The notes: generated by a model from the letters alone, not told the origin. Shown: positions 19,274 through 29,136, counted from the stretch's first letter. The stretch is 32,000 nt of DNA from Candidatus Methylomirabilis oxygeniifera (GCA_000091165.1 FP565575.1:690001-722000); one strand, 5' to 3'. Translations and numbers: made by a program.

Positions 19274-20041
19274 CTAGCCCCTCCACCGTTTCGATTCGAG
19301 GGAACGGAGCGTCAGGAAGAGGCAGAGGAGTGTGAAGTTGAGGTAGAAGATCACGTCCCTGCTTTCAATGGTGCCCTTGGCGAAACTGTCGTAATGGTTG
19401 ATGATCGAGAGGTGTGAGAGGATGGGGCCCAGCGTCGGCCCGGCCGCCTCGGCGGTCCAACCGATGACCCACAGCAACAAGAGGACGCCGAAGGCCCCGA
19501 CGGCGGCGACCACCTGGTTTTCGGTCAGGGCGGAGGCGAGAATCCCGAGTGCCAGGAAAGCCATGCCGAGAAGCAGGAGGCCAAGGTAGCCGCTCAGGAT
19601 GAGCCCCCATTCCAACGTCGCAAAGGTCCCGAGCATTGCGATGTCAAGCAGGCTGATCCCGAGCATCGCTGCGTACAGCGCGAGCGCCGCCAGGAACTTA
19701 CCCAACAGCAGCTCCCAGTCCCTGATCGGGTACGAGAAAAGCAGCTCGATGGTTCCCGTCTTCTTCTCTTCGGAAAACAGGCGCATGGTGGCCGCGGGCA
19801 TCAGGAGCAGCATCGTAATGGCGATATCACGAAACAGCGGGCGAACGATCCACTCAGAGGCATTCAGACCTCGACCGAAGGCGGGGTTCATCGTGGCCTG
19901 CAGGCTGCTGAGCGAGAAAAAGGCGAGAAGACCATAGAAAAAGTAGCCTGAGATGAGCGCGAAGATGGTCAGGACCACGTAGGCGATCGGCGAGGCGAAG
20001 TAGGCGCGCCATTCTTTCTTGAAGATCGCCAGGACGTTCAT
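19274..20041 (-). CDS. ABC-2 type transporter permease (GldF-like)
   Basis: 255 aa with six hydrophobic helices and the N-terminus MNVLAIFKKEWRAYFASPIAYVVL typical of ABC-2 permeases. Its start overlaps the ATPase stop (ATGA). Confidence 0.85.
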   Translation of the reverse strand: MNVLAIFKKEWRAYFASPIAYVVLTIFALISGYFFYGLLAFFSLSSLQATMNPAFGRGLNASEWIVRPLFRDIAITMLLLMPAATMRLFSEEKKTGTIELLFSYPIRDWELLLGKFLAALALYAAMLGISLLDIAMLGTFATLEWGLILSGYLGLLLLGMAFLALGILASALTENQVVAAVGAFGVLLLLWVIGWTAEAAGPTLGPILSHLSIINHYDSFAKGTIESRDVIFYLNFTLLCLFLTLRSLESKRWRG

Positions 20042-21024
20042 GACTGCACCTCATGCGCTTCCTTGGTTACCAGGCGCACGAAGATCTCCTCCAAGCTCAT
20101 GTCGGCGGGACGGAGCTCCAGCAGTCCCCATCCGCGCTCAACGATCAGACGGGAGACCTCACGACGCAGGTCGCAATGTCGCTCCGACTCGACGACAAGG
20201 CTGTGGGTAGTCTCGCCTGTCTGTGCGTCGGCATGTCCGGCAGACAGGCGCGCCTCATCCTCCGCCATGACCCGCAGCACGCCTGGAAGCTGGGTTAGGG
20301 CCATCCCAACCTGGTTCACTGGTCCCTCGACCCTGATGCGCAGTTTGGTGGAACTCTGAAGCCCGGCCGTCAGGTTCTCCGGGGTATCGACTGCCACAAT
20401 CTGTCCGTTGTTGATGATAATCACCCGATGACAGAGCATGCTGACCTCTGGCAGGATGTGCGTGGACAGGATCACCGTGCTTTGGCCGGCCAGCTCTTTG
20501 ATGAGCTGTCTGATTTCGATAATTTGGCTCGGATCGAGCCCGATAGTCGGCTCATCCATGATGAGCACCTCAGGATCGTTGAGCAGCGCCTGAGCGATCC
20601 CGACCCGCTGCTTGTAACCGCGCGAGAGGGCGCCGATCAAGGTCCGCCGGACTTTGGCGACGCCGCACTTGTCCATGATCTCGTCGATCCTCTGTCGCCT
20701 CCGTCCACGATCTACGCCCTTCACCTCTGCCACGAACGCCAGGTAGTCGGTCACCTTCATGTCGGTATAGAGCGGTACGTTCTCCGGCAGGTAGCCGATA
20801 CGTCGCCGCACCTGGAGCGATTCGATCAGAATATCATAGCCCGCGACGCGCGCCGTCCCGCTGCTGGGCGGCAGACAACCGGTCAGGATCCGCATCGTGG
20901 TGGTCTTGCCGGCGCCGTTCGGCCCGAGAAACCCCACGATCTCCCCTTTATCGACCTTGAAGGAGACGTCCCGAATCGCCGTATGCTTGTCGTAAAATTT
21001 CGTGAGCTTGTCCGCTTCGATCAT
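20038..21024 (-). CDS. ABC transporter ATP-binding protein (GldA-like)
   Basis: Walker A GPNGAGKTT, signature LSRGYKQRV, Walker B VLIMDEPTIGLD and H-loop STHIL are all present. The real start is the ATG at 21024 (MIEADKLTKFYDK) with SD AGGAGAGAGA. The ORF-track extension to 21312 runs across the transposon end and is spurious. Confidence 0.9.
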   Translation of the reverse strand: MIEADKLTKFYDKHTAIRDVSFKVDKGEIVGFLGPNGAGKTTTMRILTGCLPPSSGTARVAGYDILIESLQVRRRIGYLPENVPLYTDMKVTDYLAFVAEVKGVDRGRRRQRIDEIMDKCGVAKVRRTLIGALSRGYKQRVGIAQALLNDPEVLIMDEPTIGLDPSQIIEIRQLIKELAGQSTVILSTHILPEVSMLCHRVIIINNGQIVAVDTPENLTAGLQSSTKLRIRVEGPVNQVGMALTQLPGVLRVMAEDEARLSAGHADAQTGETTHSLVVESERHCDLRREVSRLIVERGWGLLELRPADMSLEEIFVRLVTKEAHEVQS

Positions 21025-21085
21025 TCTCTCTCCTGTTGCGTCCCTGCCGCCGGTCGGCAGCCTGAATCTCGAAAGACCATCGGAC

Positions 21086-21115
21086 ATTGTACACGATCCT
21101 GCTTGCTTCGCGCAA
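21086..21115 (-). promoter_or_regulatory. Candidate promoter of the ABC operon
   Basis: On the minus strand: TTGCGC (21115-21110), an 18-nt spacer, then TACAAT (21091-21086). A CTGCCG-n5-CGGCAG hairpin lies in the leader. The -35 box is only 15 nt from the transposon's left end. Confidence 0.35.
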
Positions 21116-21122
21116 CGGCGGT

Positions 21123-21130
21123 GCGATACG
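21123..21130. repeat. Target-site duplication, left copy (GCGATACG)
   Basis: This 8-mer directly abuts the left TIR. An identical 8-mer directly abuts the right TIR at 26802-26809. Confidence 0.85.
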
Positions 21131-21149
21131 GGTAGTGGGTCAGTTTGAA
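21131..21149 (+). repeat. Left terminal inverted repeat
   Basis: GGTAGTGGGTCAGTTTGAA. It contains the transposase stop codon (tca at 21140-21142 = TGA on the minus strand). Confidence 0.9.
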
Positions 21150-21973
21150 TCCAGTAAGCCGACAATTTCTTCGAGCGACCATACATGATCGGTAACTCCC
21201 GCCTGCATCGCCGGGGTAACTCGAAGCGTCTGATGTACCCGCCCGAAGTTGTACCACATGAAATGTAGGGCAACAGCGGCCTCAAGGTTCTCAACTTTCT
21301 TCGAGAAGGCATTAGTCAGTCGAGTGAATCTCCTCATGCTCATGCGCATGGTAAGGTTCTGGCGTTCCACAAACGAGGTCGAGACGTGCCGAGGATCGGG
21401 GTTTCCTTCAATCCGGTTTTTCTGGCATCCCGTACACTGAGGCGGACTGTATCGCCTCTGCTGCTGCTCTGGCGCTTCCCCGAACAGCTTCACTAATTGC
21501 GCGTAGTCCACATCGGCTCCAAACGCACCCTCTATGGCAGTCAGATACATCTTCAACCCGTCCGTCGTGAGTTGTACGCGGGTAGCGAGCCGCGTTGCAA
21601 GATCGTTGATAAACTCAGCAGCATAGCCCGCGTCACGTTCGCCTACCAGCCAAGAGATCATCAGTTTGGAGTCGGCGTCCATAGCCGCCCAAGTCCACAC
21701 ATCGCCGACTCCTGGTTTTCCCTTCATGTGCTCAGGCACGTTCTTTTCCTTCGCATAGCAGAATGACCATATCTCATCGCACTGGATACGCTTGCAGCGG
21801 AGATTCACGAGGGTTCGCCGCTGGTACTCACTGCAAGCTGCTCCGAGATCGGCCAAGAGCTTGAGGACCGTGCCTTTGGCTACACCCGTCATGCGGACAG
21901 TGGAGCGAATCGAATTGCCTTCGACTAGGGCGGCTACGACTTGTGCCCGCTTGTCCTTGCTTAATCTGTTCAT
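21140..21973 (-). CDS. IS1-family-like DDE transposase (single-ORF type)
   Basis: 277 aa from the ATG at 21973 (MNRLSKDKRAQVVAALVEGNSIRST = N-terminal HTH). The core pattern is CDEIWSF...WTWAAMDADSKL...LTTDGLKMY...SFVERQNLTMRMSMRRFTRLTNAFSKKVENL. This parallels IS1 InsB (DExW...TDG...ERxNLxxRxxxxRLxRKxxxFSK), recalled from memory. Confidence 0.8.
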   Translation of the reverse strand: MNRLSKDKRAQVVAALVEGNSIRSTVRMTGVAKGTVLKLLADLGAACSEYQRRTLVNLRCKRIQCDEIWSFCYAKEKNVPEHMKGKPGVGDVWTWAAMDADSKLMISWLVGERDAGYAAEFINDLATRLATRVQLTTDGLKMYLTAIEGAFGADVDYAQLVKLFGEAPEQQQRRYSPPQCTGCQKNRIEGNPDPRHVSTSFVERQNLTMRMSMRRFTRLTNAFSKKVENLEAAVALHFMWYNFGRVHQTLRVTPAMQAGVTDHVWSLEEIVGLLDSN

Positions 21974-22064
21974 ACTCAGAATATAGCTTGAGCGGTCAAG
22001 CATGTCAAGAGGAAAATGATGTTGAAACATTGTGGCGGCGATAGATTATGAGAAGATTGGCGTC

Positions 22065-23123
22065 CTAGACGAGTCGCAATGAATTAGGTTGGCCCAAATA
22101 GATGGCTTTTACCTCTTTTTCACGTAAAGCGATAAGATGACTAAACTCGGCGATGCTGTACTGCAATCTGGTTCGATGGAGATCAATAAGCTTATTGAGC
22201 AATCGAGGTTGCTCTGCTGGAATATCAAGTTCCGGGGGTTCCCGAAGCCGATAGCCAGCCTTACTGAATTGCATCCAGATATACCGCTCCTGCCTTTCCG
22301 TAATCTTGCCAAGTTTGGCGGCCCGTTTTAGAAGTGCGCCCATAGATACTTTCCAGTACGGCTTCAATATAGCAAGCTTAGGTACAGTGATTTCGCTAAG
22401 AGAATGCCTGATATCATCGGCAGGCATAAGAAAACTGGCCGCGAATCTATTGGCTTGGTCTTCAAGGTCCGCGTTCACAGTGCGGTGCATAATCACATGA
22501 CCAAGCTCATGAGCTAGACTGAAGCGCATTCGGTCGCCTGGTACTCCCGCGTTCACAAAGAATAAAGGTGGAAGACCAGTAATCCACTGACTAATTGCAT
22601 CTATCTTGCGAGTGTCAAAATCACACTTAATAATGATCCCGCCAGCATCCTCAATGGCCTTTGTAACGTTCTGTATTGGCCCCTTGGGAAGGACCCAACT
22701 TGCTCGGACAGCCAGTGCGACGTTCTCGGCCTGGCCATCAAACTCGTCTATGTCGAATTTTGGAAAACTCTTAGCTGGCTCAATCTCTGCGGCCTTAAGC
22801 ATTTTGGCCACATGGAATCTTCGGATATTGACCATAGCGTGAATTTTGTTCAGAGTCTTAATGGAGATGGTTTCTTTCTTTCTGTGAAACAGAATACTTG
22901 TTCCTATTCCATAGAGATCCTCATCCTGAAAAAAGAAGTGCTCAGGATAGTCTAGGGCACTGGATAGGGTCTTCAGCATTTCATCAGAGAGAGGCAATAG
23001 TCCCGCCTCAATCTTTGAGATTCGCGCCTGGGAAGCACCTACCTTGGTCGCTAATTCGCTTTGCGTTAATCCGCGAGATTCGCGGCCAAGGACTACCATT
23101 TTTGGGTTAACCTGAGGCTTCAT
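22065..23123 (-). CDS. XRE-family HTH fused to ImmA/IrrE (M78, COG2856) zinc metallopeptidase domain
   Basis: N-terminal HTH: RGLTQSELATKVGASQARISKIEAG. The central domain has the HExxH motif SLAHELGHVIMH. The start is either the ATG at 23123 (17-nt overlap with the upstream gene) or the ATG at 23099. Confidence 0.85.
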   Translation of the reverse strand: MKPQVNPKMVVLGRESRGLTQSELATKVGASQARISKIEAGLLPLSDEMLKTLSSALDYPEHFFFQDEDLYGIGTSILFHRKKETISIKTLNKIHAMVNIRRFHVAKMLKAAEIEPAKSFPKFDIDEFDGQAENVALAVRASWVLPKGPIQNVTKAIEDAGGIIIKCDFDTRKIDAISQWITGLPPLFFVNAGVPGDRMRFSLAHELGHVIMHRTVNADLEDQANRFAASFLMPADDIRHSLSEITVPKLAILKPYWKVSMGALLKRAAKLGKITERQERYIWMQFSKAGYRLREPPELDIPAEQPRLLNKLIDLHRTRLQYSIAEFSHLIALREKEVKAIYLGQPNSLRLV

Positions 23124-23703
23124 TTTTCATCTTCTTTAGCTCGCCAACCTTTGGATGCACTTGTGTTTCTGCGTGCTGCGAAGGCGTGATCTCATGGACC
23201 AGTGGAATGCTAGATTGAAGCTCGACCTCCAGGTCAATAACGTATTCGGTACCTTGCCAGCGAGGGCAGCTTATTAGAACAGCGGCGATCATGGTCTGCA
23301 AATCGTTCAACTGGTATCCAACATCAAGTCTAGTGGATTCCGGGATTCCATCCAGTGGTAGATTGTCCATGAAGGCAATAGCTTGTTGTGTTGGGTAGTT
23401 TCTTGACCGTCGGTTCTTGCCGAGCTTCTTGAAGCGGAGAAGTGCCTTTCCCTCAACGTGCACTAGAAAATAGCCTCGCTGCATAAGCGACCGAACATTT
23501 GGGACATTTTCAAATGCTTGGCGAGCTAGTTCTACCATATGATCGCGTAGAATGTTGGCCCTGGTACGAGGCGTGTGAATCATCCTGACTTCAGGAGGAT
23601 ACTTACTGAGATAATCGTCCCAGGCGGGTCGTACACAGCTATGAATCCGCTCATAATGAGGTTTGAGGAGGTTTTCCGCTTCAACTCTTGTGAGTCGTGA
23701 CAT
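23107..23703 (-). CDS. Hypothetical protein (198 aa), first gene of the XRE-ImmA operon
   Basis: The ATG at 23703 is preceded by the SD AAGGAGA at 9 nt. There is no TM segment, no signal peptide and no motif I recognise. Its 3' end overlaps the XRE-ImmA start. Confidence 0.6.
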   Translation of the reverse strand: MSRLTRVEAENLLKPHYERIHSCVRPAWDDYLSKYPPEVRMIHTPRTRANILRDHMVELARQAFENVPNVRSLMQRGYFLVHVEGKALLRFKKLGKNRRSRNYPTQQAIAFMDNLPLDGIPESTRLDVGYQLNDLQTMIAAVLISCPRWQGTEYVIDLEVELQSSIPLVHEITPSQHAETQVHPKVGELKKMKNEASG

Positions 23704-23882
23704 ATTTCCCAATCTCCTTTCTCCAACAAGGTTCAAAAGGAGACTACAGAGGTAATTGTCAAAAGTCAAGATAATTATTCTTATTATTATTCCGCGTCAC
23801 AATCAAGGGTTCGGGACTCTTGTTTCTATGCTAATCCTAGTATGTAGAACTATCGTATTCATTCCGATAACCTACTGCGCAA

Positions 23883-24098
23883 ATGAACACAGACATCCTG
23901 TTACGTTTTGGACAAAAAGTACGGCAAAGACGGCTGTCTCTTGCGATATCCCAAGAGGAACTTGCAGAGCGTGCAGGCGTTCATCGCACATACGTCGGGA
24001 TGATCGAGCGAGGAGAAAAAAACATCACACTGCGCAACATTGTGAAGTTTGCCAAGGCGCTCGATATGCCAGTCCATAATCTAATGAAATTCAAATAG
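23883..24098 (+). CDS. Restriction-modification controller (C) protein, XRE-type HTH
   Basis: 71 aa. The HTH LSQEELAERAGVHRTYVGMIERGEKNITLRNIVKFAKAL, the size, and the position 5 nt upstream of an endonuclease gene are typical of C proteins. Confidence 0.75.
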   Translation: MNTDILLRFGQKVRQRRLSLAISQEELAERAGVHRTYVGMIERGEKNITLRNIVKFAKALDMPVHNLMKFK

Positions 24099-24103
24099 GT
24101 ATT

Positions 24104-24703
24104 ATGGGCAGTAAAGAACTAAAGGGCAGGGCCGTTTGGCAAGATCAAAGTGGAGCAAACGCGAAGGTTGCCGAAAAGGATTTCTACGCTGTTTTCGAAA
24201 CGGCATTTCAAAACACTTCGTTTCGGATAAGGTCAAAACCGAAGGAATTTAAGAACATATACACAAATGTGATCCTTGACCCGAGTGTTTCCGCTGAAAT
24301 ATACAATCCGAAAGAAGGGATCAAGAGGCACGGAATAAGCCCCGACTACGCGATCGACAATCTTGATACGAAGAAAACGCTGTATGTTGAAGTGAAAAGG
24401 CAAGACGGTTGGGTTGAGGGCGGCAAGCGTTCCGATGGTCGAGGGAATGCCCATGAAAGATCATGCAAGTTCTTTACTCCAGGACTACTGGAGGTGATGC
24501 GACATCAAGGAAGACTTGGCGATAAGGTTCTTCCCTTCTGGACTGTCTTTCTTGGTGATATCACTCGCGATCCATGCCGAGTTCGGGAAATAACTTTGTG
24601 GTATAAGGGCTATGAAGATCATTTTTTCTTTTGGCGAAACCCGAAGGATGAGAAATCTCTGTTGAAACACTTTCAAGAGAAGCTTAAACACTTACTGATC
24701 TGA
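24104..24703 (+). CDS. Type II restriction endonuclease, MunI/EcoRI-like (PD-(D/E)XK)
   Basis: Catalytic pattern SPDYAIDN...LYVEVKRQD (PD...ExK). The segment GRGNAHERSCKFFTPGLL resembles the EcoRI GNAIERSHK / MunI GNAHERSCK AATT-recognition segment. ...LPFWTVFLGDITRDPCRVREITLWY also matches my memory of R.MunI. Confidence 0.75.
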   Translation: MGSKELKGRAVWQDQSGANAKVAEKDFYAVFETAFQNTSFRIRSKPKEFKNIYTNVILDPSVSAEIYNPKEGIKRHGISPDYAIDNLDTKKTLYVEVKRQDGWVEGGKRSDGRGNAHERSCKFFTPGLLEVMRHQGRLGDKVLPFWTVFLGDITRDPCRVREITLWYKGYEDHFFFWRNPKDEKSLLKHFQEKLKHLLI

Positions 24704-25427
24704 AGTCCTCTCGCTCTTGATTGAGGACATCCAATCCCCATTGAGTCCAGCCTTTAGATTTCATTCTTGCGAATAGTTCAATTCGGTCTTGGGTTGGGAA
24801 CATCTTTTCTATTGCTTCTCTGATTTCGTCTGGTTTCATGCTGTGCACTCTTCGGGGACTTCTAATAAGTTGTTGAATATTTCTCGCACCCCTCGGTTGC
24901 GGAATTCGTCCTCGCTTGAAAACTAAGCAAAGCTCACAGTTTGATAGAGTGTATTTGCCGGGGTTGTGAATCATTTTATCCCATACAAATGCTACGGTTT
25001 TGTACCCAAAACCCCACTTCTGACCAAGAGAAATTGCTTGTGCGAGATGAGGGCTGGTTGCCCACATGAATAGTAAGCAATCATCCTTCGCTATTTCATG
25101 AACCGGCATTGTCATTAGCTCATCGAGCTTCAAAGTGGGATACTTAAATGAAGCCGAACTAATGAAAATGTTTTTTGAGAGATCTATTTCATCTGCATTC
25201 TTGCTGCTTCTATCGAACTGAAGCTTTCCATTATAATCCCATGGAGGGTCCGCGTAGATGATGTCAAATTTCTTCTTCGGAAAATCGGGATACAGGGTAG
25301 GCATTCCGTTTTGCTTGATCCTACTCTTCACTTCCTCATTATAAATGACGTATCCAGTAATCTTTTTCATGCTATCTATAGTGTGCATTTCGGAGGCGCT
25401 GTCAAGCGTTGTTTTAGATCGCTTCAC
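24684..25427 (-). CDS. MT-A70-family N6-adenine DNA methyltransferase
   Basis: Catalytic motif IIYADPPWDY (DPPW), then ...LLFMWATSPHL...WGFGYKTVAFVWDK...HSMKPDEIREAIEKMF...ELFARMKSKGWTQWG, as in MT-A70 enzymes. The start is uncertain (GTG 25427, ATG 25388 or ATG 25370). Its 3' end overlaps the endonuclease 3' end by 20 nt (convergent genes). Confidence 0.85.
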   Translation of the reverse strand: MKRSKTTLDSASEMHTIDSMKKITGYVIYNEEVKSRIKQNGMPTLYPDFPKKKFDIIYADPPWDYNGKLQFDRSSKNADEIDLSKNIFISSASFKYPTLKLDELMTMPVHEIAKDDCLLFMWATSPHLAQAISLGQKWGFGYKTVAFVWDKMIHNPGKYTLSNCELCLVFKRGRIPQPRGARNIQQLIRSPRRVHSMKPDEIREAIEKMFPTQDRIELFARMKSKGWTQWGLDVLNQEREDFRSVSV

Positions 25428-25662
25428 TTGCCCAACGAGTTAAAGCAGCTTTTTTGGCGATCCGCGATCTCGCCTTGGCAGAGAGCTTCTTCGCTCTAGC
25501 AGGGCCACCCTTAAGACCACCCAATCGACCCAAGGCTACAGCAGCAGGATTCTTTTGCGGGATGCTCTCACTGGCAGGCTTCTCGCCAGTCGCCGCCTGA
25601 ACAATCGAAGAGGCGAGAACGTTGATATCGGTAGGCAGCTTCTTGCTTGTGCGCTTAGGCAT
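25414..25662 (-). CDS. Small basic protein of unknown function (82 aa)
   Basis: The ATG at 25662 has the SD GGAGAT. The C-terminal half, NPAAVALGRLGGLKGGPARAKKLSAKARSRIAKKAALTRW, is a K/R/A/G-rich motif common in small proteins of mobile elements. It lies upstream of, and possibly overlaps, the methylase start. Confidence 0.5.
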   Translation of the reverse strand: MPKRTSKKLPTDINVLASSIVQAATGEKPASESIPQKNPAAVALGRLGGLKGGPARAKKLSAKARSRIAKKAALTRWASEAI

Positions 25663-25811
25663 ATCTCCAGTATAGAGTTGCCTCTGCCTTGCGTCAAGTG
25701 CTACATGTCGCAAAACGGGTTTTTTATTTTTGTACGGTCGAATAAAAGTTTCAATTTTCTACTGAGCCTGTTATACTTTTAAATCAATAAGAGCACACGT
25801 AAGCAGGAAGT

Positions 25812-26441
25812 ATGGGAAGCATCAATAGCGAGGTGTGTGCGATGAGAAAACATACTATGCAGAAAACAATCACAAAACGCTTACAAGGACGAAGATTGCA
25901 GGACGACAAGCTGCGAGAACTGATTCTCTATATCGCTAGGGAGTCCGAAGGCGATCCTTCATTCGGAGCTACAAAGCTCAACAAGCTGCTCTTCTATGCG
26001 GACTTCCTTGCTTATAAGCATCTTGGTGGGGCAATCACCAAACAGGAGTATCAAGCTCTCGATCAAGGGCCAGCACCTCGGAAGTTAGTGCCTTTACTGC
26101 AAAAGATGGAGAAGGTGTGTGAAGTTGCTACCCAGAAGACAGACTACCATAACTATACCCAAAATCGAACCATCGCTCTCAGAACAGCAAACCTAGACCG
26201 ATTCAAACCAGAAGAGGTTGTTTTAGTGAGCCGGATCATCCGTCAATGCTGGGGTAAGACTGCACGCCACATGAGCGATCTCTCGCACCAGTTCATAGGA
26301 TGGCGCCTGGCTAACATAGGAGACACGATTCCTTATCCTGTTGCACTAATAAGCGAGCGTGAGCCTACCAAAACAGAAATCAATTACGCTCGGTCTCTGC
26401 AATCGTTGGCGAAGAAATGCTTGTCTTCCAATGTTACCTAA
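25812..26441 (+). CDS. Panacea / SocA (DUF4065) domain antitoxin-like protein
   Basis: The segment GDPSFGATKLNKLLFYADFLAYKHLGGAITKQEYQALDQGPAP is the characteristic core of DUF4065 (Panacea). SD AGGAAG precedes the ATG at 25812. A candidate promoter lies upstream: TTCAAT (25750-25755), 16 nt, TATACT (25772-25777). Confidence 0.7.
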   Translation: MGSINSEVCAMRKHTMQKTITKRLQGRRLQDDKLRELILYIARESEGDPSFGATKLNKLLFYADFLAYKHLGGAITKQEYQALDQGPAPRKLVPLLQKMEKVCEVATQKTDYHNYTQNRTIALRTANLDRFKPEEVVLVSRIIRQCWGKTARHMSDLSHQFIGWRLANIGDTIPYPVALISEREPTKTEINYARSLQSLAKKCLSSNVT

Positions 26442-26697
26442 CCTGCGATGTGTAATTAAAGAGAAGCGATTTGAAAGCGAGCTTAAGCGGATCAAAACCA
26501 ATCCGCGCCGTGCGGATGATTTTGTTGAGGGTCCAGAGTGGGTATTGTCACGCGATCCTGAACAAGGAACGCAAGTAGAGGAAGATCCGCCGGTCTGGTT
26601 CTTGGGCATTGAGGATGACAGTTCGCACCTAACGGCGGCTATTTACTACACCTTCGACGAGAACCATGTTTGGCTTCTTTCAATCAGGACCATATAG
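26431..26697 (+). CDS. Putative toxin partner of the Panacea protein (88 aa, RelE/ParE-like C-terminus)
   Basis: The ATG at 26431 overlaps the upstream stop by 11 nt. The ending ...LTAAIYYTFDENHVWLLSIRTI resembles the terminal beta-strands of RelE/ParE-fold toxins. No stronger motif was found. Confidence 0.45.
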   Translation: MLPNLRCVIKEKRFESELKRIKTNPRRADDFVEGPEWVLSRDPEQGTQVEEDPPVWFLGIEDDSSHLTAAIYYTFDENHVWLLSIRTI

Positions 26698-26782
26698 TTG
26701 ATCAGATTATCCCGCCGATATTAATCCATCGCTTAGGACACTACCTGCCAGCACTATCTACTACCCGTCATTTACCACTCAC

Positions 26783-26801
26783 TTCAAACTGACCCACTAC
26801 C
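26783..26801 (-). repeat. Right terminal inverted repeat
   Basis: TTCAAACTGACCCACTACC is the exact reverse complement of 21131-21149. Confidence 0.9.
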
Positions 26802-26809
26802 GCGATACG
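26802..26809. repeat. Target-site duplication, right copy (GCGATACG)
   Basis: Identical to 21123-21130 and directly abutting the right TIR. Confidence 0.85.
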
Positions 26810-27092: not shown

Positions 27093-28562
27093 TTACACCC
27101 GCGCGAAGTCGATGAACCCTTGCTCCACATTGGTGTCGAGGAGTTTGACGCGGACCCGATCGCCGACGTCCAGTCCCTCGAACCCCTGGATAACCTTACC
27201 CTCTGCGGAGGGATGGATGATACGCACCCAGGTCCCTTTCCTGGACGCGCCAGTGACGATGGCGTCGAAGTGCTGCCCGATCTTTGATTCGAGGAGCAGC
27301 GCGGCCGCCGATTTCCGGACCCGTCGCTCGACCTTGCTCGCATGGTCTTCCTGCTCGGTACAGTGCTGCGCGAGCGCGCCGAGCTCTTCAAAGCTGTACG
27401 GGACCCGGTGTTCAGCCAGCGCGGCTTTGAGCAGCCGCTGCGTCAGCAGGTCCGGGAAACGCCGGTTCGGGGCCGTGGAGTGCGTGTAGGCCGGGATCGC
27501 CAAGCCGAAGTGGCCCGGCGTCGTCCGGTCGGGACCCTCCACCACATACTCGCCTCGTCCGATCAGCTTGACGACGGTCAACGAGAGATCGGGAAACCGC
27601 ACCGGGTCCATCCGGCGCCGTATCGATAGAAACGTCTCCAGAGCGACGGCGTCCGGCTCTGGTGGAAGCCGTTCCCCCATGTGGGCTGCCAGATCTACAA
27701 TCCGCTGCCATCGGTCCGGTGAACGCAAGATCCGGCGCAGTGACGGCAGGCCCCGCGCCTCGAGGTACCGGACCGTCACACGATTCGCCGCAATCATAAG
27801 ATCCTCGATCAGCTCCTGGGCCCGGTTCTTGTCCTCTGCGCGCAGATCGGTCAGCACGTCGTCCTCAAACACGGCGCGCGGCTCGATCGTCTCCAGGCTG
27901 AGCGCGCCGTGCATGTGTCGCACGGTCCGCAGTGTCTGAGCCACCCGGTCCTGGACGCGGAGTTGCTCGTCGAGCCCGGTCACGGTGGCCACTCGTCCCG
28001 GGGCGGGCTCTCTGCCGTCGAGCCAGGCGGCCACGCTGTGATAGGTAAGCTTCGCGTGGTTGACGACCAATGCGCGATAGATATCCGAACTCCCGAGCGA
28101 GCCATCCTGGTTGACCACCATCTCGATCACGACGGCCAGCCGGTCCTCATCCTCGTTGAGCGACGTGAGATCGGTGGAGAGGGGCAGGGGGAGCATCGGG
28201 AAGATCTCGGCCTCTGTGTAGACGGACGTGGTGTTGTGCTGAGCGTGGGCATCGACGGCGGACCCCTTGCGCACCAGCGCGTCAACGTCCGCGACCGCTA
28301 CCAGGATCTTTACCGCTCCGCCGCCGAGGGGTTCTGCGACCGTAAGCTGATCGAGGTCGCGGGAGTCGTCATTATCGATTGAGCACCAGCACAGGCGTCG
28401 CAGATCCCGGATGGATGGGGTAGGCTTGGCCGCCGGACGTGTGAGTCCACTGATCTCCCGGACGACGGCGGGTGAAAAATCCGGGAGCAGCCCGCGCGCC
28501 AGCATCGCGCGGCGCGCAATTGCCTGGAGACCGTAGCGATGTCCTTGTCCGGTGTAATTCAT
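27093..28562 (-). CDS. RNB-domain 3'-5' exoribonuclease (short RNase II/R family, RNB + S1, no cold-shock domains)
   Basis: RNB motifs CWCSIDNDDSRDLDQL and YTHSTAPNRRFPDLLTQRLL are present. The C-terminal S1-like domain is HFDAIVTGASRKGTWVRIIHPSAEGKV...VRVKLLDTNVEQGFIDF. At 489 aa it is much shorter than RNase II or RNase R. Confidence 0.85.
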   Translation of the reverse strand: MNYTGQGHRYGLQAIARRAMLARGLLPDFSPAVVREISGLTRPAAKPTPSIRDLRRLCWCSIDNDDSRDLDQLTVAEPLGGGAVKILVAVADVDALVRKGSAVDAHAQHNTTSVYTEAEIFPMLPLPLSTDLTSLNEDEDRLAVVIEMVVNQDGSLGSSDIYRALVVNHAKLTYHSVAAWLDGREPAPGRVATVTGLDEQLRVQDRVAQTLRTVRHMHGALSLETIEPRAVFEDDVLTDLRAEDKNRAQELIEDLMIAANRVTVRYLEARGLPSLRRILRSPDRWQRIVDLAAHMGERLPPEPDAVALETFLSIRRRMDPVRFPDLSLTVVKLIGRGEYVVEGPDRTTPGHFGLAIPAYTHSTAPNRRFPDLLTQRLLKAALAEHRVPYSFEELGALAQHCTEQEDHASKVERRVRKSAAALLLESKIGQHFDAIVTGASRKGTWVRIIHPSAEGKVIQGFEGLDVGDRVRVKLLDTNVEQGFIDFARV

Positions 28563-28852
28563 CCCGCCGTAGTTCTCCGTTGGAGGTCACGGTAGAAATT
28601 TTCATGAGGGCCAACGGCCAGGAGTCGGATCAGTCGTTTTTGTATTTCCAGTCGGTAGGCTACCAGATATTCTAACTCTTGGTGGGTGAACTTGAAAACT
28701 CGCACTCCTTTTAACACACCGACCTTCGGCGTACCGATCAGGGGATCAGCGAGGATCATCCGGACTGCGGCATCGATAGCCTCCTGCAGGGACCTTGAGG
28801 CTTTTTTCTTCCGCCGGTGGAAGAGAGGCGTGACCACCGGCGCCCAAATCAC
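28559..28852 (-). CDS. RelE/ParE-family type II toxin
   Basis: 97 aa. The layout ...SLQEAIDAAVRMILADPLIGTPKVGVLKGVRVFKFTHQELEYLVAYRLEIQKRLIRLLAVGPHENFYRDL is typical of RelE/ParE toxins. Its start overlaps the antitoxin stop, and its stop overlaps the RNB ATG. Confidence 0.8.
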   Translation of the reverse strand: MIWAPVVTPLFHRRKKKASRSLQEAIDAAVRMILADPLIGTPKVGVLKGVRVFKFTHQELEYLVAYRLEIQKRLIRLLAVGPHENFYRDLQRRTTAG

Positions 28853-29082
28853 AGCACTCCCCAGGGATACGGCTCCAGGAGTCCTTGCTTTGCCTGTTCA
28901 TCCCCTTCCAGGATGTCCTGGATCATGGAGAGCGGCAGCTCCGGGTTTTCCTCTGCGATCATGGCCAGGAGGGCGTAGTAGCGGACCTGTTCCGATACAC
29001 TCCGCCCTTCAGCCTTGGCCTTGGCGGTGAGGCGTTTCTTCAGTACAGGGTCTAAGCGGATCGGAAGCACTGAGCCGGCCAT
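28849..29082 (-). CDS. Ribbon-helix-helix (CopG-like) antitoxin
   Basis: The ATG at 29082 has the SD AAGGAGGTG at 6 nt. N-terminal RHH pattern: VLPIRLDPVLKKRLTAKAKAEGRSVSEQVRYYALLAM. The longer ORF-track starts (29136, 29109) fall inside the predicted promoter. Confidence 0.75.
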   Translation of the reverse strand: MAGSVLPIRLDPVLKKRLTAKAKAEGRSVSEQVRYYALLAMIAEENPELPLSMIQDILEGDEQAKQGLLEPYPWGVL

Positions 29083-29107
29083 CGAGTCCACCTCCTTTGT
29101 GTTATAC

Positions 29108-29136
29108 ATTGTAGAGCGCAAGAGGAGGGGCGTCAA
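29108..29136 (-). promoter_or_regulatory. Near-consensus sigma70 promoter with overlapping palindrome (probable TA operator)
   Basis: Minus strand: TTGACG (29136-29131), a 17-nt spacer, then TACAAT (29113-29108). The palindrome TACA-A-TGTA spans the -10 box. Confidence 0.5.

Follow-up and report, generated by a model that had tools for sequence, protein, structure and literature searches.

A stretch of 32,000 nucleotides from the genome of Candidatus Methylomirabilis oxygeniifera (GCA_000091165.1, FP565575.1:690001-722000; hereafter the window, in which positions are counted from the first letter) contains a 5671-bp mobile element that we assign, with a probability of about 0.85, to the transporter insertion sequences (tIS). 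It belongs to a divergent, single-open-reading-frame branch of the IS1 family and carries a restriction–modification (R-M) system and two toxin–antitoxin (TA)-type modules as cargo. The element is real, well delimited and probably functional. It illustrates well a kind of mobile element that is already known and does not represent a new one.

Boundaries and insertion site

The length of the element is counted from outer end to outer end of its terminal inverted repeats, which are complementary at 19 of 19 bases and start with GGTAGTG (Table 1). A reading made beforehand from the nucleotides alone (the sequence-only reading) had described perfect 19-bp repeats abutted by 8-bp direct repeats, with the transposase stop codon inside the left one; the sequence reads exactly so, with TGA at 21140-21142 lying within 21131-21149. 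With up to 3 mismatches allowed, the 19-mer occurs only at the two terminal sites in the 32 kb and is absent from 100 shuffles, and the terminal pair is the sole perfect long inverted repeat of the region. GC content also sets the interior apart, being lowest in the cargo (0.42-0.50), higher in the transposase gene (0.54-0.56) and highest in the flanking chromosome (0.58-0.66); the passenger DNA, as had been noticed earlier, is AT-rich, 10-20 GC points below the chromosome.

The insertion point has an RNase II-like gene on one side and, on the other, an operon encoding an ATP-binding cassette (ABC) transporter. Through relatives of the flanking ABC gene, we found the corresponding empty site in a related metagenome contig (JGI contig Ga0209515_10000520, here L110; ABC protein 88% identical), in which the flanks are contiguous and a single target copy, CGTATCG, is present with no cargo. 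Because L110 joins both flanks around one target copy, the 5.7 kb is a true insertion. The earlier claim of a single insertion, made from the perfect repeats and the 8-bp duplication, thus holds, and the empty site that it had proposed to look for exists in a related genome. Cargo at this locus without terminal repeats, which it had named as contrary evidence, was not found in related genomes. An exact-match search of metagenome contigs for the reconstructed empty site returned none, and all contigs whose flanking or cargo proteins are identical carry the element, at the same site and in the same strain.

We give almost no credence to a chance match or an assembly artefact as the source of the repeats. 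Beyond the absence of matches in the shuffled sequences, the same junctions are present in independent assemblies (NCBI, ENA and several Logan runs), and the same ends with 8-bp duplications occur at well over 80 other loci.

Table 1. Features of the element and its target duplication, in window coordinates
Feature	Position	Strand	Remarks
Target-site duplication, copy at the transposase end	21123-21130		GCGATACG; 8 bp, abuts the inverted repeat
Inverted repeat, transposase-proximal (IRR by IS convention)	21131-21149	+	GGTAGTGGGTCAGTTTGAA; houses the transposase stop codon
Single-ORF DDE transposase	21140-21973	-	277 aa from conserved Met20; N-terminal helix-turn-helix (HTH)
Promoter-like sequence of the transposase gene	21980-22008	-	TTGACA-17-TATATT; 6 nt before the transposase start codon (ATG at 21973)
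XRE-HTH and M78 (ImmA/IrrE) Zn-peptidase, RmrA-like RosmerTA-type antitoxin	22065-23123	-	HELGH motif
198-aa candidate RmrT toxin	23107-23703	-	No recognised family; 17-nt overlap with the RmrA start
R-M controller (C) protein, 71 aa	23883-24098	+	Pfam HTH_3; PADLOC Control_protein 69.8 bits
MunI-like type II restriction endonuclease, 199 aa	24104-24703	+	PF11407 232 bits; PADLOC REase_II 227 bits
MT-A70-family DNA methyltransferase	24684-25427	-	DPPW motif; PF05063 81 bits; PADLOC MTase_II 210.6 bits
Conserved core gene, 82-aa basic protein	25414-25662	-	MPKRTSKK...KNPAAVALGRLGGLKGG...RW
Promoter-like sequence of the small open reading frame	25669-25697	-	TTGACG-17-TATACT; 6 nt upstream of the small-ORF ATG
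SocA/Panacea-domain antitoxin, 209 aa	25812-26441	+	Pfam PF13274 51.4 bits
88-aa ORF, candidate toxin partner	26431-26697	+	11-nt overlap with the Panacea gene; called in other assemblies
Inverted repeat, transposase-distal (IRL by IS convention)	26783-26801	-	TTCAAACTGACCCACTACC
Target-site duplication, second copy	26802-26809		GCGATACG; 8 bp, identical direct repeat

Relatives and a second copy

A protein search returned at least 8000 homologues of the transposase. We took 80 genome loci whose transposases are 63-78% identical; these loci belong to Methylomirabilota, Nitrospirota, Acidobacteriota, Planctomycetota, Desulfobacterota and other groups. Both ends were found in 72 of these loci, with a perfect 8-bp duplication in 64 and a 7/8 duplication in 2; the resulting 66 elements form the base for the family counts given here. 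Positions 1-7, 14 and 16 of the ends are 94-100% conserved. The relatives measure 1997-5278 bp and none is a bare IS of about 1 kb. The same architecture is found on a Mesorhizobium loti plasmid (3370 bp, perfect ends) and on an Acidiphilium multivorum plasmid (2634 bp). The sequence-only reading had presented the window copy as an unusual, cargo-carrying IS; given that no relative is shorter than 1997 bp, this framing has to be given up, and cargo carriage is the rule in the clade, not a peculiarity of this copy.

The same survey bears on an alternative in which the IS is only about 0.9-1 kb long and holds the transposase alone, so that the distal 19-mer is a solo end and the cargo chromosomal DNA. 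To this we assign very little probability. The alternative calls for a functional end just upstream of the transposase gene, as the sequence-only reading had pointed out. No end-like sequence is present there in the window element, even with 3 mismatches allowed, and in the 66 relatives the nearest upstream end is 638 nt from the transposase gene, the shortest gap to the distal end; this space always contains a small open reading frame (ORF). In addition, the 8-bp repeats stand at the outer ends, L110 joins the outer flanks without the cargo, and the cargo lies well below the chromosome in GC. Nothing was found in favour of the short element, and the 66 relatives and L110 speak against it.

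A second copy is present in the same genome (L098 5684-10870; GCA_009026205.1, WBTX01000002.1), the window corresponding to contig WBTX01000003.1 of that assembly. It is 5187 bp long, has identical 19-bp ends and its own duplication, CGGAATCC, and encodes a transposase 92% identical in protein, which one source labels, in error, a pyridoxamine 5'-phosphate oxidase family protein. The small ORF is present in this copy too, and the gene order parallels that of the window element, with an SfiI-like endonuclease, an N6/N4 methyltransferase and a 207-aa protein of no family next to a 410-aa XRE-ImmA protein. Apart from the ends, the two copies share homologous DNA only in the segment of the small ORF (79%) and in the transposase gene (82.5%); their ImmA proteins are 27% identical and the proteins encoded upstream of these are unrelated. 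The earlier suggestion to search this genome for further pairs of terminal repeats therefore yielded a second pair, but the cargo enclosed is not the same, its R-M system being a different one.

Movement within the family is documented in two ways. First, an Acidobacteriota metagenome-assembled genome holds two 2233-bp cargo-carrying copies (L007/L008) that are 100% identical and stand at different sites with different duplications. Second, the exact 19-mer occurs in 109 IMG/VR contig stretches (L192-L300), which contain 22 end pairs with 8-bp duplications. Nine of these pairs enclose a transposase; 7 are non-coding units of 186-616 bp that resemble MITEs (miniature inverted-repeat transposable elements; for example, L192 373-662 and L270 6143-6476), and 6 are units of 784-1958 bp without a transposase, 5 of them with the small ORF (for example, L201 4011-5138). 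Because MITE-like and transposase-less units have duplications, the ends are sufficient in cis, movement takes place in trans, and the DNA between the ends moves.

The load of the relatives is highly variable and includes many TA- or defence-type genes, by counts rather than by enrichment statistics. The 66 elements contain 287 ORFs other than the transposase, which fall into 192 clusters, and the sole large cluster is the small protein. Among 150 ORFs of at least 85 aa, Pfam matches comprise HTH_3 (13), Peptidase_M78 (7), NYN (3), Panacea (3) and Gp49 (2), with one each of MmeI-type R-M, RelA/SpoT, PIN and MT-A70. PADLOC finds RmrA (7), HEC-09 (4), PD-Lambda-2 (2), a type IIG R-M system and others. 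Cargo outside the classical defence repertoire also recurs: proteasome-subunit-like proteins (5), SDH/ClpP-like proteases (4), DUF3467 (4), NfeD1b_N (3) and retroviral-type aspartyl proteases (3).

Conserved backbone

The sequence-only reading had counted all passenger genes as defence cargo. This stands for the R-M system and the RmrA-like and Panacea proteins; the gene for the small basic protein, however, is a conserved core gene, with a homologue in 65 of the 66 elements by hidden Markov model search. Its start lies 54-87 nt from the transposase-distal end in 48 elements (mode 66), on the transposase strand. In the three closest elements, DNA similarity is restricted to the ends, the small gene (70-79%) and the transposase gene (82-91%), which is why we count the small gene as part of the backbone. 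At least 4220 homologues of the protein were found, and the family follows the pattern MPKRSSK..DxNxLAxxIV..ATGE...KNPAAVALGRLGGLKGGKARAxKLSxxxRxEIAKKAAxARW. It has no match in Pfam (E up to 1), among PDB sequences (E up to 10) or in PADLOC, and it shares neither similarity nor a zinc finger with IS1 InsA; its AlphaFold2 (AF2) model is weak (pLDDT 73, pTM 0.29) and has no Foldseek match. We propose that it is a DNA-binding regulator. Several records label the small ORF 'histone H1', an annotation error.

Both backbone genes have promoter-like sequences directly upstream (Table 1), and in the relatives the small ORF has a TTGAC...TATAcT promoter with the -10 box 6 nt from the ATG. This spacing in both genes suggests leaderless mRNAs. 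Some relatives have a GGAGG Shine–Dalgarno sequence instead, with the promoter farther upstream.

A palindrome is shared between the two promoter regions. In the window element, GCTTGACCGCTCAAGC lies at 21986-22001, within the spacer of the transposase promoter, and a second, operator-like site, GCCTAAGCGCACAAGC (25645-25660), is found on or close to the start of the small ORF. Across the family, the 16-bp palindrome GCTTGAGCGCTCAAGC (up to 3 mismatches) is found near the transposase start in 40 of the 66 elements, in the promoter spacer wherever the sequence upstream of the transposase was inspected. In 22 elements it also occurs close to the distal end, either within the spacer of the small-ORF promoter or over the first codons, where the signal may partly reflect the conserved MPKRSSK coding sequence. 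The background is 3 matches in 1.0 Mb of flanking DNA.

Two more motifs that contain GGTAGT, GGGTAGTAGATAGTG and CAGGTAGTGTCC, are located at 26735-26765, 36-66 nt inside the distal end, and may be extra transposase-binding sites or the vestige of an older end. An Rfam scan of the element gave no match.

Cargo of the window element

Of the immunity and addiction genes that had been read from the sequence, database matches support an R-M system of MunI-like type that includes a C protein, an XRE-ImmA protein resembling RmrA, and the Panacea antitoxin. The MunI-family endonuclease, the methyltransferase and the C protein are encoded together. The methyltransferase gene, of 228-247 aa depending on the start codon, follows the small ORF directly, on the same strand, and is convergent with the endonuclease gene. 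CAATTG, the site presumed for a MunI-type system, is not found in the element, where 1.5 were expected, and the remaining 26 kb contain two (8062 and 28517) against 4.1 expected, counts that are too small to interpret.

The RmrA-like protein matches Pfam HTH_3 and Peptidase_M78, PADLOC RmrA (206 bits, E 1.8e-61) and, in NCBIfam, the spr1629 repressor/antitoxin. Its 198-aa neighbour has no match in Pfam, NCBIfam or PADLOC, including the RmrT models; 5 homologues were found, and its AF2 model (pTM 0.71) has no fold match in the PDB. From its position, it is a candidate RmrT toxin, and the two proteins form a putative RosmerTA pair. RosmerTA systems combine a Zn-peptidase antitoxin with diverse toxins (Millman et al. 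2022, 10.1101/2022.05.11.491447; Ernits et al. 2023, PMC10440598), and the same two papers also cover Panacea systems. The pair in the window resembles the former in having an HTH and Zn-peptidase antitoxin next to an unrelated small protein, and the Panacea-domain protein with its overlapping partner ORF resembles PanTA. The R-M genes are those of a MunI-type system: a MunI-family endonuclease, an MT-A70 methyltransferase and a C protein. Unlike in the known TA systems, neither candidate toxin here fits a known toxin family.

The 88-aa ORF, which has no family match, is by its position a candidate toxin partner of the Panacea antitoxin. The Panacea cassette, of about 1.07 kb, occupies exactly the interval from the distal end to the small-ORF promoter. 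It moves the small gene out to 1140 nt from the end, farther than in any other element. DNA is likewise present in this interval in nine other elements; most have none there. A relic end beside the small ORF and repeats bordering the Panacea cassette were both looked for, and neither was found.

Family assignment and cargo history

The transposase frame is open up to 22030, corresponding to 296 aa, and its catalytic residues D85, D157 and E222 (296-aa numbering) are invariant across the family alignment. Pfam PF03400 (DDE_Tnp_IS1) matches at 25.3-25.5 bits, just over the cut-off of 24.1. BLASTP against InsB of IS1A from Escherichia coli K-12, our InsB reference, gives E 1e-5 with a match around the catalytic E region, and hhalign aligns a 31-member family profile to it (residues 85-253 on 44-158, Prob 84.5%, E 7e-6), placing all three DDE residues in register (family/InsB: DEIW/DEQW, TTDG/MTDG and VERQN/IERHN). 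The ends point the same way. IS1 ends follow the rule GGnnnTG, and those of the family (GGTAGTGGGTCA..., variant GGTAGTGACTCA) fit it, with repeats of about 20 bp and an 8-bp duplication that falls within the 8-9 bp of IS1; the IS1A ends read GGTGATG... and GGTAATG (GGTAATGACTCC...), and the insB stop codon also lies inside an end. Many relatives are named 'IS1 family transposase' in the source databases. From the sequence comparisons we conclude that the transposase belongs to a divergent single-ORF branch of the IS1 family; the IS1 likeness that had been proposed earlier is thus supported by a Pfam match above cut-off, by the DDE triad aligned with InsB and by the GGTAGTG ends.

Several observations weigh against our assignment of the element to the tIS. 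The best NCBIfam model, IS1 (NF033558), matches the transposase at 53.8 bits, under its equivalog cut-off of 100. The gene is one uninterrupted ORF with no frameshift arrangement of insA and insB', and the element is therefore no classical IS1. The window element is known at a single site in all assemblies, and this particular copy is presumed to be mobile. Two Nitrospira genomes hold copies (L045/L076) with a common duplication, CAAGTCAG, flanks 84-87% identical and transposase genes 86% identical, and yet their DNA is unrelated at both cargo positions. Finally, no family or fold was found for the small protein or for either toxin candidate, and their proposed roles come from position only. 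As to the frameshift, ISfinder lists single-ORF subgroups of IS1, and its lack consequently excludes only the classical subgroup.

The first of these observations also bears on whether the element belongs to another DDE family (IS1595, IS6 or IS481) and merely resembles IS1, which we regard as improbable. In addition to the shortfall in the NCBIfam score, there are weak matches to IS6 and IS481 models, about 40 additional residues separate the second D from the E relative to IS1, and elements of the IS1595 family also produce 8-bp duplications. By contrast, IS1 is the top match in both Pfam and NCBIfam, the DDE core aligns with InsB, no IS1595 Pfam domain is found even at E up to 1, the ends are IS1-like (GGTAATGACTCC in IS1A, GGTAGTGACTCA as the family variant), and the names given to relatives in the databases agree. 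We therefore retain the IS1 family.

The Nitrospira pair bears on the history of the cargo. It can be read as replacement of the cargo in place or as a second hit on the same site; we favour replacement, because the divergence of the transposase genes matches that of the flanks. Cargo can thus change after insertion, and the duplication in the window proves the joint arrival of the ends only. Of the earlier claim that the element moved as one unit, the part concerning the ends stands; that today's cargo arrived with them we would infer.

The ends may accordingly have been inserted as a smaller tIS, to which cargo, such as the Panacea cassette of about 1.07 kb or the R-M system, was added or swapped later by recombination between copies, so that the 5.7 kb never moved as a unit. 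We hold this to be unlikely, though with a real chance of being right. It would agree with the unrelated cargo between the same duplication and similar flanks in L045/L076; the ends, small ORF and transposase gene common to the two copies in the M. oxygeniifera genome are possible exchange arms; the Panacea cassette fills exactly the space between end and small-ORF promoter that is empty in most relatives; and the exact element is seen at one site only. Against it, 10 of the 66 elements, the window element included, have DNA in that space and still show perfect duplications, the identical L007/L008 copies carry cargo at two sites, and the cassette borders show neither internal repeats nor another mark of later insertion. 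Such a history alters how the element came to be, not its nature as a tIS.

Neighbouring genes and assemblies

The ABC-transporter operon begins 106 nt past the element (21025-21130; 20038-21024), and the transposase gene is transcribed towards it; read-through out of the element could affect the operon. On the other side, at 27093-29136 (- strand), the RNase II-like gene (RNB and S1 domains, 489 aa) has a 4-nt overlap with a ParE-like toxin gene, itself preceded by a ParD-like gene. The three look like an operon adjoining the insertion site.

Logan short-read contigs from M. oxyfera samples break at the element. Two (L087/L088) stop just past the ImmA gene, L092 begins at the 5' end of the transposase gene and includes the transposase-proximal inverted repeat, and L093, L094 and L096 begin within the neighbouring ABC gene. 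Breaks of this kind would be expected with a transposase gene present in repeated copies or with cargo that varies in the population.

Proposed mechanism and comparison with known elements

The layout of the window element is autonomous, with an intact transposase gene. Its backbone consists of the two 19-bp ends (GGTAGTGGGTCAGTTTGAA), the gene for the 277-aa transposase, the gene for the 82-aa protein and the palindrome at both promoters. From what is known of the IS1 family, the transposase would bind both ends, cut, and join them into a staggered 8-bp target; repair of the staggered target would give the 8-bp duplication, and whatever DNA lies between the two ends would travel along. Either the small basic protein or the HTH of the transposase may repress both promoters through the palindrome. 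Cargo is carried at up to three sites. The first separates the distal end from the small gene, the second separates the small gene from the transposase gene, and the third lies downstream of the latter gene. In the window copy, the first site holds the Panacea antitoxin and its 88-aa partner and the second the C-controlled MunI-like R-M system and the putative RosmerTA pair. Once inserted, the addiction and defence modules would stabilise the element and may shield the host from phages.

E. coli IS1 shares with this element a homologous DDE core, GGnnnTG ends, an 8-9-bp duplication, a stop codon in the repeat and a gene for a small basic protein transcribed from just within the opposite end. 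It is, however, 768 bp long and makes its transposase as an InsA-InsB' frameshift fusion, whereas here one 277-aa ORF has its own HTH and kilobases of cargo part the small gene from the transposase gene. Within IS1, the ISMhu11 group reaches 4.6 kb, and a copy of 5.67 kb would be at or above that range.

The tIS class was defined by Siguier, Gagnevin and Chandler in 2009 for relatives of IS1595 and IS1, according to passages in later accounts (PMC3129680, PMC7986276, PMC9330008). The window element resembles its members in having an IS-type transposase and ends around unrelated passenger genes, with one outer duplication. As in the class, passenger genes lie inside the ends and a single insertion is matched by an empty site; presence of the unit at more than one site is seen in the relatives L007/L008 and not in the window element itself.

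MITEs and mobile insertion cassettes (MICs) derive from IS elements (PMC3129680). The non-coding units of 186-616 bp and the transposase-less units of 784-1958 bp among the relatives resemble them and share the same ends; the window element differs in being autonomous. Tn7-like transposons carry defence cargo (Benler et al. 2021, PMC8649781) and are likewise a transposon backbone whose load varies greatly and is rich in R-M, TA and further defence genes. They differ in encoding several transposition proteins and target selectors over tens of kilobases, in contrast to one DDE protein in 2-6 kb here. In a literature search that did not cover ISfinder, we found no published description of the conserved small gene, the palindrome, the three cargo positions or the lack of cargo-free copies.

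Implications

Annotation pipelines call only the transposase in such elements, mislabel the small gene as 'histone H1' or 'hypothetical' and leave the ends unmarked, and because the ends are unmarked the cargo looks like chromosomal genes. Related elements number in the hundreds (at least 381 genome hits), in many bacterial phyla, and likewise carry cargo; their range takes in Methylomirabilota, Nitrospirota, Acidobacteriota, Planctomycetota, plasmids of Proteobacteria and (pro)viral contigs.

More tentatively, and with somewhat less than even confidence, we suggest that the clade is a very large subgroup of IS1, not described as such, that serves as a cassette-exchange platform for TA, R-M and defence genes. 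More than 8000 homologues of the transposase and more than 4000 of the small protein, from many phyla, plasmids and (pro)viral contigs, would belong to it; the small protein, of about 80 aa, and the transposase, both expressed from promoters with the shared palindrome, would bracket the hypervariable cargo, and the conserved arms would allow exchange in place.

Defence and addiction genes are already known on large islands, phages, plasmids and Tn7-like transposons. An IS-type vehicle of 2-6 kb with one protein would do the same job as these, and because the units are small and easy to clone, phage protection, stabilisation of the element and cargo exchange would be directly testable.

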